This document shows positions 627 to 24,473 of a stretch of 64,000 bases of DNA, in pieces. How positions within the stretch are numbered: position 1 is the stretch's first letter; each line of letters starts with the position of its first letter. Under the pieces are notes generated by a model. It was not told where the DNA came from. It made no database searches and saw nothing but the letters and a program-made list of their open reading frames with translations. A program made the position numbers and the translations under genes. The DNA is from Escherichia phage vB_EcoP_PE007. The DNA is taken from sequence record OQ938542.1; one strand, 5' to 3'.

Positions 627-935
627 ATGACACAGAAATTACGTGTATGGCACATTCCCCAAATGCCAATGAAGGCATTTCATGTAGAAACTGATAGTCT
701 TCAGGAAGCTGTTAAGATTAAGAATGCGTTAGCAGACTATGACCTATTCCAGTATGAGAACAATGTCAAAGGCGATTATGCTAATGCTAACGGTATTGAG
801 ATGTGGGATGAGTCCCTCACTGACCAAGACCTTATTGATAGGGAATTGGAGGACCGTTGGGTAGATTGGTATATTGAAACTGAAGACGATTTCTTTGATG
901 ACCCAGAAGAATATCTGAATTATCTAATCAAGTAA
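627..935 (+). CDS. small acidic hypothetical protein
   Basis: ATG at 627 preceded by aggaga RBS; strongly acidic C-terminus (ETEDDFFDDPEEY). Confidence 0.6.
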   Translation: MTQKLRVWHIPQMPMKAFHVETDSLQEAVKIKNALADYDLFQYENNVKGDYANANGIEMWDESLTDQDLIDRELEDRWVDWYIETEDDFFDDPEEYLNYLIK

Positions 936-1876: not shown

Positions 1877-2206
1877 ATGAAAACTTTACTTAAAGGTATT
1901 GCAGTAGCTGCACTGATAGCTTTGGCCCCAAGTGCACAGGCAATTGAACCAGAACCAATTCTGGAAGGTGCTCAGGCTTACCTGGATGACACCCGTGATG
2001 TGTTCGGGCAAGGGTTCTTCATGGGCAGCATGGTTGCTTACATTGAGAACACAAATAACTGTGTTCCTGATGGTATTAAGTATTCAAGCATTCTGCCTAA
2101 GATTGCCAAAGTAGTTATTTATGACTCTGCGATCCTTAAGATGAAGAATACATCTCAAATTATTGCGTACTCAGTGCACAAGGCATATCCCTGCACCAAA
2201 TCTTAA
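1877..2206 (+). CDS. secreted/periplasmic small protein
   Basis: N-terminal signal peptide MKTLLKGIAVAALIALAPSAQA with AQA-I cleavage-type site; two Cys. Confidence 0.55.
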   Translation: MKTLLKGIAVAALIALAPSAQAIEPEPILEGAQAYLDDTRDVFGQGFFMGSMVAYIENTNNCVPDGIKYSSILPKIAKVVIYDSAILKMKNTSQIIAYSVHKAYPCTKS

Positions 2207-2240: not shown

Positions 2241-3293
2241 ATGGCAAGCATTGACTCCTTGACCGTATGTAATTCACGTCAAGCCCGTAACTTTATTATC
2301 CGTGCCTTGAAAGCAGGTAACGTACCGTTCCTGACTTCATCCCCGGGTATGGGTAAATCTGCAATCATTCGTTCTATTGCAGAAGAATTTGGTATGAAGC
2401 TGATAGATCATCGTCTGTCTACTTCTGCCCCAGAAGACCTGTCTGGCTTACCATTCCGTAATGGTGACCGTGCAGAGTTTATTCCATTCGCTGACTTATT
2501 CCCCATTGAAGGGGATGAAGTACCAGAAGGGTATAATGGCTGGCTCCTGTTCCTTGATGAGTTCAACTCAGCTAAGAAAGAGGTAGTGGCTGCTGCATAC
2601 AAACTAATTCTCGACCGTATGACTGGTCAGAAAAAACTTCATCCTAATGTGATGATTGTATGCGCTGGTAACAAAGCTACTGACCGTGCCATTGTTAACC
2701 CATTAGGTACTGCAATGCAGTCCCGTGTGGTTCACTTTGAAATGGAACTTAACTTCGACATCTTTGTTGAAGACGTAATGATTCCTCAGCAATGGGATGA
2801 ACGTCTGGTTGCATTCTTACATGCTAATCCAGGCTATCTGCATGACTTCGACCCAGCTCATAAGAACAAAACGTTCTGTTGTCCTCGTACTTGGGACTTT
2901 GTTAATAAAGACCTCAAGAACCTGCCAGAAGGTGCTCTTCCTGATGAAGATTCTATCTACTATGCAGGTCACGTTACTGCTGGTAAGGCTACAGAGTTTG
3001 TTCAGTTTACTCAGGTATATAATCGTATCATTACGATTGAGAAGGTAGTCAAAGACCCACTGGGCTGTGCACTACCGGAAGATAACAACCTGTGTTGGGC
3101 TACCGTTAACCATCTGGCTAACAAGACTACTGAAGAGAACTTTGTTGATGTTCTTCAGTACATTGAACGCTTTAAAACGTTCACCCATAAGATTCTGTAC
3201 TTCCGCACAGTAGGCAAGGCTTTACCAGAAATTCAGGCTACACCTGAATGGCGTAAGGCTGCTGCTAACGTCTCTCGTTACATTCACGGATAA
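2241..3293 (+). CDS. MoxR-like AAA+ ATPase
   Basis: Walker A SSPGMGKSAI, Walker B LFLDEFNS; aggagag RBS. Confidence 0.75.
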   Translation: MASIDSLTVCNSRQARNFIIRALKAGNVPFLTSSPGMGKSAIIRSIAEEFGMKLIDHRLSTSAPEDLSGLPFRNGDRAEFIPFADLFPIEGDEVPEGYNGWLLFLDEFNSAKKEVVAAAYKLILDRMTGQKKLHPNVMIVCAGNKATDRAIVNPLGTAMQSRVVHFEMELNFDIFVEDVMIPQQWDERLVAFLHANPGYLHDFDPAHKNKTFCCPRTWDFVNKDLKNLPEGALPDEDSIYYAGHVTAGKATEFVQFTQVYNRIITIEKVVKDPLGCALPEDNNLCWATVNHLANKTTEENFVDVLQYIERFKTFTHKILYFRTVGKALPEIQATPEWRKAAANVSRYIHG

Positions 3294-3300
3294 TCACAAC

Positions 3301-4476
3301 ATGAACCAATTTCCTCAGCACACACTTAGTGATGAACAACTCATGCGTGAGTATGACCGTATTCAGGCTCAAGCCTTCCTGGGTAAGTCTGCTGCGTTCT
3401 TTGGTTCATTGCTGTGTAGTCTTAAATTCTCATGGAAACGCGAGGATTGCCCCACTGCATGTACTGATGGGATAGAACTCCATTTCAACCCAGACTTCTT
3501 TATCTGGATGTGTCCAGATGCAAGAGAAACAGTATTAATGCACGAGTTATGGCATGTGGCATATCTACATGACATTCGTCGTGGAAGCCGTGACCCGGAA
3601 GTCTGGAACCAGGCTTGTGACCACTTCATTAACCTTCAGTTAGAAGAGGATGGTTACAAGTTCACTGGTATTGACAAAGGCATTTGCAAAGACCCTCAAT
3701 ATAAGGATTGGGTCGAAGAAGACATCTACGATGACCTGATGAAGAACCCTCAGAAAAGGCAGAAGCCGTCAGGGGGTGCTGGAGCAGGTCTTGCTGGCGA
3801 CATAAAATCCCCCACTTCGGGGCAGTCCCAGGGTGCTGTTGTCAACAACGTAGTTCGTGCAATGCAGAGCCAGAAAATGGCTGGTGGACAGATGCCTGGT
3901 AAGGGTGCTGGACGTATGGAAGAGGTTATTACCCAATTCCTTAAACCAGTGGTTCCTTGGCAGGAAGTTCTGATGAACTTCTTTACCGACATTGATGACA
4001 CTCACTATACGTGGGCCAGACCAAACCGTCGTTATACTGACACCTATCTACCTTCACTGGAAGATGATGAAGGACGCCTACGACACTTAGCTTATTTTGA
4101 GGATGTATCCGGTTCTATTAGTAGTGCTGACTCTCTGCGTTTTAACTCAGAGGTTGCCTACGTTAAGAGCCAGTTCAATCCTAAGAAGATGTCCCTAATT
4201 ACCTTCGACGATATTATCCAGGAAGAAATAGACATCACTGAAGAAGATACTTTCGAAGAAATTAAAATTACTGGTCGTGGTGGTACAAGCCTCGTGCCTG
4301 TACGAGATTGGATTATTAAGAATAAGCCAACCGCTGCAATCATATTCTCCGATATGTATGTTCGTCCAATGGAAGAATTGCCATTTGATATCCCTATCAT
4401 CTGGTGTGTTCTGAATAATCCCAATGCTACCGTACCTTTTGGGGAGGTAGTTCATATCCCTAAAGGAATGAAATAA
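3301..4476 (+). CDS. VWA-like domain protein with HExxH metallopeptidase-like N-domain (DUF2201-type)
   Basis: HELWH motif; C-terminal half resembles a VWA-like fold; immediately follows the MoxR ATPase as in bacterial MoxR-VWA pairs. Confidence 0.55.
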   Translation: MNQFPQHTLSDEQLMREYDRIQAQAFLGKSAAFFGSLLCSLKFSWKREDCPTACTDGIELHFNPDFFIWMCPDARETVLMHELWHVAYLHDIRRGSRDPEVWNQACDHFINLQLEEDGYKFTGIDKGICKDPQYKDWVEEDIYDDLMKNPQKRQKPSGGAGAGLAGDIKSPTSGQSQGAVVNNVVRAMQSQKMAGGQMPGKGAGRMEEVITQFLKPVVPWQEVLMNFFTDIDDTHYTWARPNRRYTDTYLPSLEDDEGRLRHLAYFEDVSGSISSADSLRFNSEVAYVKSQFNPKKMSLITFDDIIQEEIDITEEDTFEEIKITGRGGTSLVPVRDWIIKNKPTAAIIFSDMYVRPMEELPFDIPIIWCVLNNPNATVPFGEVVHIPKGMK

Positions 4477-5201: not shown

Positions 5202-5274
5202 GTAACTGCCTAAATAGCCCAGCATAGTTGGGCTATTTGTGAAGAAACTAACTCAACCCCACATAGGAACCATC

Positions 5275-5517
5275 ATGGAATCTTTAGCAGCAATCCTTGT
5301 TATGTTGTTTGTATTAGCTGTATACCTTATCCCTACTATCATTGCTTTCTCACGAGGCCATGCCTCTAAGTGGGGTATTGGTGTGCTTAATATCGTATTA
5401 GGCTGGTCTTTAGTCTTCTGGGTAGTAGCACTGATTTGGTCGCTGTCCAACAAAGGACAGAACCAAGTTACAAATGTAACTGTTGTCCAAACCAATGGTG
5501 GCAGTAAAGCAGAGTAA
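5275..5517 (+). CDS. superinfection immunity (Imm-family) membrane protein
   Basis: YLIPTIIAFSRGHASKWGIGVLNIVLGWSLVFWVVALIWSL matches the Imm_superinfect pattern; ATG 5275 with aggaa RBS (track start 5239 is GTG). Confidence 0.55.
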   Translation: MESLAAILVMLFVLAVYLIPTIIAFSRGHASKWGIGVLNIVLGWSLVFWVVALIWSLSNKGQNQVTNVTVVQTNGGSKAE

Positions 5518-22323: not shown

Positions 22324-23076
22324 ATGTCCGAAGTAATTCCCAATGATATGAACACTCAGCTAATCCTGATTGCAGGATTCTCAGCGAGTGGTAAATCAGC
22401 ATCACTGCGTAACATCAGGAACCAGGAACGCTGGCTCTATCTGAATACTGAAGCAGGTAAACGTCTGCCTTTCCGTAACAAGTTCAATACTTACAACATC
22501 GAAGACCCGTACCAAATCTGGGAAGCATTTGATGTTGCATCTCCGGGTGGAGAAATGGCAGACGATGTTGATGGTATCATCATTGACTCAGCAACCTTTA
22601 TGATGGATATGCTGGAATCTCAGTACGTATTGCCTTCTGCAAATACGCAAAAGGCATGGGGAGATTTTGCACAGTTCTTTAAGATACTGCTGCAACAGAA
22701 AGTCGTTAAGTTTGGTAAGCCAGTAATTATTACTGCTCATGCTAAAGACGAACTTGATGAAGCTGCTGGTGTAATGAAAACATTCATCCCAGTGAAAGGC
22801 TCTCTGAAGAATAACGGGCTTGAAGCCTACTTCTCTACAGTGGTTTACGCAGAACGTGTAGACATTAAAGAACTGGAGAAGTATGGAAACAAGATGCTTG
22901 AAATTACGGAGGAAGAACGTGATTTAGGCTATAAACATGTATTCCAGACCCGTCCAACCAAGAAGTCTGTTGGTAAACGACTTCGTTCTCCTATGGGTAT
23001 GTTCGATAAGTCCGAGACTTACATTGATAACGATGCCCAGAAACTCTTAGACCACCTGGCTGAATACTACGCTTAA
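22324..23076 (+). CDS. P-loop NTPase (RecA-like/Sak4-like ATPase candidate)
   Basis: Walker A GFSASGKS; gaggaaa RBS. Confidence 0.5.
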   Translation: MSEVIPNDMNTQLILIAGFSASGKSASLRNIRNQERWLYLNTEAGKRLPFRNKFNTYNIEDPYQIWEAFDVASPGGEMADDVDGIIIDSATFMMDMLESQYVLPSANTQKAWGDFAQFFKILLQQKVVKFGKPVIITAHAKDELDEAAGVMKTFIPVKGSLKNNGLEAYFSTVVYAERVDIKELEKYGNKMLEITEEERDLGYKHVFQTRPTKKSVGKRLRSPMGMFDKSETYIDNDAQKLLDHLAEYYA

Positions 23077-23115
23077 GCGTTTGTCTGGTTGTTAATCACT
23101 TATTAGGAAAATCAT

Positions 23116-23919
23116 ATGTCATTGTTCAGTAATCTGAAAGAAAAAACCAAAAACGTTGAAGCTGCTAAAGACTCTCTGGGTGGTGGTGGCTTCGGTGCAA
23201 AAGAAACCGATATCTACACTGGTACTGTAAAAGTAGCTTACGTAGGCAAAGCTGATTCTGGTGCAGACTGGATGCAGTTAATTATTGAAGACCTGAAAAA
23301 CTCTGATGGCGTGCCTGCTGGCGAGTTCCGTGCTCAGGTGTACTTCACTTCTGGTAATGCTAAAGGCAACAAGCCGACTTACGAGAAAAATGGTAAAGAG
23401 TACTTCCTGCCTGGCTACACTGTCATTAACGACATGATGCTGATGGCTACTGGTACTGAACTGCCTGAAGCAGACTTCGAAGAGAAGATTGTTAAAGTCT
23501 ACGACTACGACGCTAAAGCAGAAGTTAATAAATCTGTCATGGTTCCAGTTGACCTGGTAGGCCAGACTGTTACCTTCGCTCTGGAAAAAGTTCTGGAAAA
23601 CAAGCAGGTTAAAGGCGACAACGGTTATGTAGACTCTGACGAAACTCGTGAAGTAAACGAGATTCAGAAAGTGTTTCACCCAGAACTGCTGGTCACAGTC
23701 GTCGAGGCTCAGGAAGCAGAGAAGGCTGAAAAAGAACTAACCCCAGAACTGGCTGTATTCTATGCAGCATGGCTGGAAAAGAACAAAGGCAAAACTCGTG
23801 ACAAGACTAAGAGTTCTGCTGGTGGTAATGGTAAAGGTGGCTTGCCTCCTAAACCAGGTGCGGGTGCTGGCACGGGTACTGCTCCTGCTGGTGGTAAATC
23901 ACTGTTTGGTAAACGTTAA
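23116..23919 (+). CDS. SSB-like protein (N4 gp45-like by size and position)
   Basis: 267 aa, Gly-rich termini, position between replication genes and resolvase; no motif-level proof. Confidence 0.45.
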   Translation: MSLFSNLKEKTKNVEAAKDSLGGGGFGAKETDIYTGTVKVAYVGKADSGADWMQLIIEDLKNSDGVPAGEFRAQVYFTSGNAKGNKPTYEKNGKEYFLPGYTVINDMMLMATGTELPEADFEEKIVKVYDYDAKAEVNKSVMVPVDLVGQTVTFALEKVLENKQVKGDNGYVDSDETREVNEIQKVFHPELLVTVVEAQEAEKAEKELTPELAVFYAAWLEKNKGKTRDKTKSSAGGNGKGGLPPKPGAGAGTGTAPAGGKSLFGKR

Positions 23920-24473
23920 TGAAAATCCCAATTGTCGGTGCAGACATTAGTCTCCGCAATTGGGGTTTAGCTCGTGGGATGCTGGACATTGAGTCCGGCG
24001 TCTTCGAGCAGGTCGAACTTAAACTGGTTCAAACTGAAGTTGACCACAACAAACAAGTTCGAACCAACTCCAAAGATATACAAGCCGCTCACGATTTGTT
24101 TCTTGGTTGTGAGGAATGGTTACGGTCTGCTAAAGCAGTATTCGTAGAAGTACCAGTAGGCTCTCAGTCTGCTAACGGTATGAAATCCTATGGCGTATGC
24201 GTAGGATTAATAGGTGCATTTCGTGCATTGGGTTGTCCAATCTTTGAAGTATCCCCAATTGAAAACAAACTTGCACTGGTCGGTGATAAAACTGCATCTA
24301 AGGACACGATGATTCGTGCTGCTCATGCCATCTATCCTGAAGCCAACTGGCTCACAGATAAGAAGGGCAAACTTATGAATAAGAATGAGCACTTAGCTGA
24401 TGCAATCGGTGCAATCCATGCTGGTGTAAATCTCCCAGCTTTCCAAAACCTCCTTAATTTAATAAAGGCGTAA
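23919..24473 (+). CDS. RuvC-like Holliday junction resolvase
   Basis: N-terminal IVGADISLRNWGLA, central FVEVPVGS, C-terminal DAIGAIHAG resembling RuvC catalytic regions. Confidence 0.5.
   Translation: MKIPIVGADISLRNWGLARGMLDIESGVFEQVELKLVQTEVDHNKQVRTNSKDIQAAHDLFLGCEEWLRSAKAVFVEVPVGSQSANGMKSYGVCVGLIGAFRALGCPIFEVSPIENKLALVGDKTASKDTMIRAAHAIYPEANWLTDKKGKLMNKNEHLADAIGAIHAGVNLPAFQNLLNLIKA

Follow-up and report, generated by a model that had tools for sequence, protein, structure and literature searches.

A soluble acidic protein of an N4-like coliphage belongs to the P22 gp17 family and is probably a counter-defence protein

The gene at positions 627-935 (+ strand) of the DNA analyzed here, a 64,000-nucleotide stretch of Escherichia phage vB_EcoP_PE007 (OQ938542.1) that we refer to in its entirety as the window, is not an orphan and encodes a member of the already known, curated and widespread family of P22 gp17 and N4 gp18. 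Within the window it is an ordinary representative of this GP17 family and, by analogy with P22 gp17, counter-defence against prophage-encoded exclusion is probably its best-supported role. The explanation that we favour, and to which we give somewhat better than even chances, is that of a soluble, acidic alpha/beta protein that most likely serves in counter-defence by neutralizing an exclusion protein of the abortive-infection type, as P22 gp17 is reported to do for a Fels prophage of Salmonella. An earlier note, made from the sequence alone, had described the product as a strongly acidic early protein and a possible Ocr-like DNA mimic that blocks restriction or other DNA-binding defences. 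The counter-defence category contained in that proposal is plausible by homology to P22 gp17, whereas its Ocr-like part found no support in our analysis.

The coding sequence (102 aa) opens with an ATG, ends with a TAA at 933-935 and is preceded by a Shine-Dalgarno sequence, AGGAG (615-619, +), which was read from the sequence and lies 7 nt 5' of the ATG. The upstream ORF encodes a Hoc-like head-decoration protein (phrog_2973) and ends at 559; because this ORF runs off the start of the window and is incomplete there, the gene at 627-935 is the first complete gene, just as the earlier note had it. A terminator-like hairpin with a 7-bp stem, a 6-nt loop and a weak T tail (582-601, +) follows the head-decoration gene, and N4-like records carry a 'terminator' annotation at the equivalent position. 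The cassette is closed by a strong intrinsic-terminator-like hairpin (988-1017, +), in which the hairpin proper (988-1010), with a 9-bp stem containing 6 G-C pairs, is followed by T7. An Rfam search of the locus returned no match above threshold. The 12.3 kDa product contains 25 aspartate and glutamate residues (24.5%) against 9 lysine and arginine residues, resulting in a net charge of -16 (-0.157 per residue) and a pI of 4.13, and it includes 14 aromatic residues. Its acidity exceeds chance and ranks first among the window's 53 + strand ORFs that reach 80 aa. The strong acidity claimed earlier is confirmed by these values and is retained in the relatives of the protein, with net charges of -10 to -19 in 59 close homologs and a mean domain charge of -11.5 in 148 representatives of 1,158 family clusters, the few outliers being truncated or frameshifted. 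Analysis of the product demonstrated neither a signal peptide nor a transmembrane (TM) segment, the highest Kyte-Doolittle hydropathy of any 19-residue stretch being -0.06, where a TM helix would require about 1.6. The protein is soluble and cytoplasmic.

The window is approximately 93% identical to the E. coli Gamaleyavirus phages St11Ph5, IME11, ECBP1 and Bp4, which belong to the N4-like Schitoviridae. A Pfam scan of the 627-935 protein, carried to E=10, returned PF17420 alone ('GP17, superinfection exclusion gene product 17'; E=1.1e-44, 151 bits against a gathering cut-off of 25 bits, profile positions 2-96 of 98), and the protein likewise matched phrog_1510 (E=8.4e-49), while PADLOC and NCBIfam gave no match. 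The family-invariant residues P11, Q12, F18, Y38, D39, F41, Q42, K48, D50, G56 and W78, together with RVWHIPQ, are all present. Members of the GP17 family are mostly 85-130 aa long, and the 627-935 protein, with its 102 aa and net charge of -16, fits a standalone acidic domain of about 90-110 aa. P22 gp17, on which PF17420 was founded, is 64% identical to it over the full length (103 versus 102 aa), carries a similar net charge (-17 versus -16) and has the invariant motifs in common with it; the C-terminal module contains ETEDDFFDDPEEY in the 627-935 protein and SECQCYDDPREY in P22 gp17. The sequence P0014 has a P22-like N-terminal part joined to a window-type C-terminal part. N4 gp18, the positional ortholog, sits directly 3' of the gp17 decoration gene of N4 and is 61% identical in a full-length alignment that includes the FFD[DN]P[EK]EYLN tail. 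Its record carries the note 'similar to P22 gp17', and it is somewhat less acidic than the 627-935 protein (net -12, pI 4.32). For N4 gp18 and for any Gamaleyavirus ortholog the literature yielded no function or experiment, no genome-wide N4 fitness data were found there, and the GP17 family goes unmentioned in the accessory-gene screens of Silas et al. The RefSeq entry for the ortholog in phage PGN829.1 (NC_070871.1, 2125-2439) has its start cut to leave 92 aa, and the true ORF runs from the same ATG (MTQKLRVWHIPQ...).

Homologs of the 627-935 protein were detected by tblastn in 325 phage records, which include most Kuttervirus/Ackermannviridae phages, one Stephanstirmvirinae Klebsiella phage and phages labelled Bacillus PK-3, Nocardia P69 and Mycobacterium WXIN. 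Among these 325 records, occurrence within the Schitoviridae is limited to the enterobacterial N4-like group. An exhaustive profile search produced the 1,158 GP17 clusters at 50% identity, 748 of them with E<=1e-10. At the DNA level, the gene is 72% identical to the P22-like gene 17 even though the genomes are unrelated, and this identity together with the hairpin-flanked cassette fits a mobile accessory gene. No conserved neighbour gene was found across phage families beyond the lambdoid P_L context, and a search for informative domain fusions in 150 representatives recovered sporadic ones without a consistent partner. These rare fusions (P0169, P0214 and P0158) join the GP17 domain to Phage_gp49_66 (the N4 gp49 / Sf6 gene 66 family), to DUF6166 or to a sub-threshold RNAP alpha-CTD-like segment, and they may be gene-call fusions or real.

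Invariant columns and predicted secondary structure delimit a conserved core at residues 4-57 (636-797, +), arranged as beta1-loop-beta2-alpha1-loop-beta3. Its invariants are RVWHIPQ.P, F18, Y38-D39-x-F41-Q42, K48-x-D50-Y51-x-N53 and G56, and identity across the core still amounts to about 50% in the members from Bacillus and Nocardia phages; in the C-terminal half W78 is the sole invariant residue. That half corresponds to an acidic C-terminal module (residues 58-102; 798-932, +), which is folded and varies in length across the family, with short forms lacking the insertion at residues 61-77. The module holds the acidic/aromatic signature W78-V-D-W-Y-I-E-T-E-D-D-F-F-D-D-P-E-E-Y96 (858-914, +), in which ETEDDFFDDPEEY occupies residues 84-96. 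The acidic C-terminus with interleaved aromatic residues, to which the earlier note had drawn attention, is the form taken here by a signature common to the whole family, W-x-[DE]-W-x-D-[DE]-E-[TS]-G-x-DD-P-x-x-Y. Some 14 acidic positions are retained throughout the family. An AlphaFold2 model built from the 59-sequence alignment (pLDDT 93.9, pTM 0.83) is a compact, single-domain alpha/beta structure composed of beta 5-10, beta 18-22, alpha 25-44, beta 54-60, alpha 66-71, beta 78-80 and alpha 93-101. In this model the acidic C-terminus is folded within the domain (pLDDT 89-96) and forms no disordered tail. A mimic of the SSB C-terminal tail, with its acidic and aromatic tip, was set aside because the segment is confidently predicted to be folded and not a free tail. 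Foldseek against the PDB returned nothing significant (best E=0.84), PDB sequence searches started from the protein and from the family profile gave best E values of 0.059 and 0.042, respectively, which are spurious, and a BFVD structure search recovered GP17 family members only.

Comparison with the PGN829.1 ortholog yielded a dN/dS of 0.17 for the whole gene, which therefore represents a real gene under purifying selection. The two parts of the gene differ in their divergence, codons 1-69 displaying a dN/dS of 0.02 with a dS of 0.24 and codons 70-102 a dN/dS of 0.14 with a dS of 1.8. A test for positive selection on the acidic tail gave this dN/dS of 0.14. Because dS is 1.8 in one part versus 0.24 in the other while dN/dS is low in both, recombination is favoured over positive selection as the source of the tail's divergence. 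These comparisons of sequence suggest a recombination breakpoint near codon 70 (about position 834), with the acidic C-terminal module having been swapped between lineages.

The escape phenotype of the family comes from the literature on the P22 homolog. A passage in PMC6486243, citing Semerjian, Malloy & Poteete 1989, states that P22 needs gp17 to counteract exclusion by the Fels-2 prophage, and a passage in PMC9409062 likewise has gp17 countering Fels-2 exclusion for P22, with a SieA paper given as reference. According to a passage in PMC4837284, which cites Susskind & Botstein 1978, gp17 releases Fels-1 exclusion. The secondary sources are split between Fels-1 and Fels-2, and all agree that gp17 is an escape function. 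Given this phenotype, a counter-defence category is plausible for the 627-935 gene by homology, and the label 'superinfection exclusion' is misleading because the phenotype of P22 gene 17 is the reverse, an escape from exclusion. In P22, gene 17 belongs to the early P_L operon, where it is flanked by ral (anti-restriction) on one side and c3-kil-arf-erf-abc1-abc2 on the other; in lambdoid prophages, those of E. coli included, the GP17 gene lies between N and cIII-kil-(gam)-recT, and in these lambdoid relatives it is a delayed-early gene of the P_L operon. In N4 the early class extends as far as genes 15/16 (RNAPII), and the rightward genes that follow belong to the middle class, transcribed by RNAPII (PMC4496689). 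The N4 gp18 ortholog is located just beyond genes 15/16 and is therefore probably a middle, pre-replicative gene. The word 'early' in the first description of the 627-935 product consequently suits the lambdoid relatives, while the position of the N4 ortholog points to the middle class. P22 gene 17 and the 627-935 gene are alike in appearing to be pre-replicative accessory genes, although their settings differ, P22 being a temperate lambdoid podovirus and the present phage a virulent N4-like one in which the gene follows the head-decoration gene.

In the counter-defence explanation, the 627-935 protein would be made before replication or at about the time it starts, and would bind and neutralize a component of an exclusion system encoded by the host or by a prophage, by what we infer to be protein-protein inhibition. 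The invariant N-terminal patch would probably provide a specific interface, while the acidic C-terminal module would probably occupy a basic patch on the target, one that may bind nucleic acid. Inhibition would probably be stoichiometric, with the conserved acidic module contributing to it. Weighing against this explanation, the escape phenotype is known for P22 only, through the passages of secondary literature that divide between Fels-1 and Fels-2. In addition, the core identity of about 50% across E. coli, Bacillus and Nocardia phages is more than one usually sees when the inhibited defence protein evolves fast, and may instead reflect a universal host target or ligand.

A lead to the excluding protein is offered by Fels-2 (NC_010463), a P2-like prophage with two cargo genes between portal gene Q and the replication module. 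In P2 this position is that of the tin/old defence hotspot. The gene STM2723.1 (Fels-2 positions 22639-24336, - strand), annotated as hypothetical, encodes a full-length AbiU/AIPR protein (PADLOC AbiU, E=5.4e-112; Pfam AIPR, E=8.8e-43), while its neighbour STM2726 (242 aa) gave no match. Of ten cargo genes sampled from Fels-1, none matched a defence system, apart from generic helicase-domain matches to the replication helicase of this prophage. Since AbiU/AIPR is encoded by Fels-2 and was absent from the sampled Fels-1 cargo, it is a candidate for the exclusion countered by gp17, and we infer that STM2723.1 is the leading candidate target. A bolder version, which we regard as a speculation with little probability behind it, would make the GP17 family the first known AbiU/AIPR inhibitors, with STM2723.1 causing the Fels-2 exclusion and the acidic module acting as a nucleic-acid mimic that plugs the substrate-binding site of the effector. 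Such anti-AbiU/AIPR activity would account for the spread of the family over phages of Proteobacteria, Firmicutes and Actinobacteria, in which AbiU/AIPR is also present. In E. coli the AbiU allele of Fels-2 is a rarity, occurring in 7 of 5,426 complete genomes, which weighs against the counter-defence explanation with this target.

The same conservation of the core can be read as the mark of a host-takeover factor directed against a conserved housekeeping protein, for instance one that binds nucleic acid in replication, recombination or transcription, in which case the escape from Fels would be an indirect effect. We consider this unlikely. A housekeeping target would suit a core that keeps about 50% identity whether the phage host is Gram-negative, a Firmicute or an Actinobacterium, the very large size of the family, the tight constraint on codons 1-69 and the company of kil, cIII, gam, erf and recT in the lambdoid phages. 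The distribution of the gene is nevertheless patchy, as exemplified by its restriction to one group of the Schitoviridae, the gene behaves like a mobile cassette, and the sole reported phenotype depends on a prophage.

The Ocr-like DNA mimic of the earlier note, whose acidic surface would imitate DNA phosphates and titrate type I R-M, BREX or other DNA-binding defences, is at most a minority possibility, and we judge it distinctly improbable. T7 Ocr (gene 0.3) and the 627-935 protein are alike in being small, cytoplasmic and very acidic, with Asp/Glu-aromatic interleaving near the C-terminus, and the 627-935 protein, like Ocr, plausibly inhibits a defence protein stoichiometrically. In composition (small, pI below 5, high Asp+Glu) it resembles the DNA mimics, its size, pI of 4.1 and acidic content lying within the range of the known ones. 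The family-wide conservation of acidity, including the acidic positions noted above, therefore makes nucleic-acid mimicry possible. Ocr itself, with 29% Asp+Glu, a net charge of -28 and a pI of 4.05, is nevertheless more densely charged (-0.239 versus -0.157 per residue), and the 627-935 protein has no similarity to Ocr (BLASTP E=5.8; hhalign probability 0.26%) or to any other Pfam anti-restriction family, whether by sequence or by profile. Ocr is all-helical and dimeric, and its all-alpha fold is shaped like bent B-form DNA, whereas the 627-935 model is alpha/beta. Membership in the Ocr family was rejected on the absence of similarity and the different fold. The predicted alpha/beta fold is unmatched by any solved DNA mimic, and known DNA mimics were absent from all lists of structure matches. 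Moreover, the highest conservation resides in the non-acidic N-terminal core, unlike in charge-array mimics, and the one known phenotype of the GP17 family is escape from prophage exclusion, whereas that of Ocr is anti-restriction, a function for which P22 possesses a separate gene, ral, near gene 17.

Restriction sites in the window bear on the same question. EcoKI sites (AACN6GTGC) number 8 versus 8.1 expected and EcoBI sites (TGAN8TGCT) 8 versus 12.1 +/- 3.0 expected; both occur at about chance frequency, in favour of a mimic, and type I restriction sites are not avoided in the window. The Enquatrovirus phages of the BASEL collection, relatives from the N4 group, are reported to be highly resistant to all tested defences, R-M systems included, for reasons that are partly unexplained (PMC8594841). 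Chance-level sites combined with this resistance make an anti-restriction function somewhere in these genomes plausible, and nothing ties it to the 627-935 gene.

There is a small chance that the protein is instead a binder of small molecules (a signal 'sponge') or a small enzyme, in which the invariant polar cluster H9, Q12, D39, Q42, K48, D50, Y51 and N53 would make up a pocket for sequestering or modifying an immune signalling molecule. That it is a true superinfection-exclusion protein, blocking the entry or development of secondary phages as the RefSeq, PHROGs and Pfam annotation has it, is hardly credible, given that the label traces to P22 gene 17 with its reverse phenotype, that gene 17 lies in a P_L operon repressed in lysogens, that no superinfection exclusion system has been characterized for N4 (PMC12642591), and that the product has no signal peptide or TM helix, unlike the Imm_superinfect protein of the window at 5239-5517. 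Its likeness to T4 Imm, P22 SieA and Pfam Imm_superinfect is one of database label only. Proteins of that kind reside in the membrane and act on DNA as it enters the cell (PMC10883804 for SieA), whereas the 627-935 protein is soluble and acidic, and the Pfam scan gave no match to PF14373 (Imm_superinfect) in it.

The gene at 5239-5517 (+) encodes a 92-aa membrane protein that has a TM segment and matches PF14373 (E=7.5e-17) and phrog_1039 ('immunity to superinfection'); in contrast to the 627-935 gene with its 'sie' label, it is a genuine superinfection-immunity candidate. The gene at 1877-2206 (+) encodes a 109-aa protein (phrog_11132, no Pfam match) with the signal-peptide-like N-terminus MKTLLKGIAVAALIALAPSAQA, and the product could be a periplasmic immunity-like protein. 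In phage 24-32N a gene in the matching region is annotated as 'tai4 protein'. An AAA ATPase (2241-3293, +) and a protein with DUF2201_N putative metallopeptidase and VWA-like features (3301-4476, +) make up the first and second members of a pair resembling N4 gp24/gp25, and the RefSeq name 'HNH endonuclease' for the PGN829.1 counterpart of the second looks like a mis-annotation.

GP17 is a hallmark gene family of Kuttervirus and N4-like coliphages used in phage therapy, and databases throughout list it under the mistaken label 'superinfection exclusion'. Should the counter-defence role be true, this label misleads assessments of therapy safety, because the gene would extend the host range of its phage and not block co-administered phages. 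The pairing with the AbiU/AIPR protein of Fels-2 makes the question of mechanism directly testable with simple genetics.
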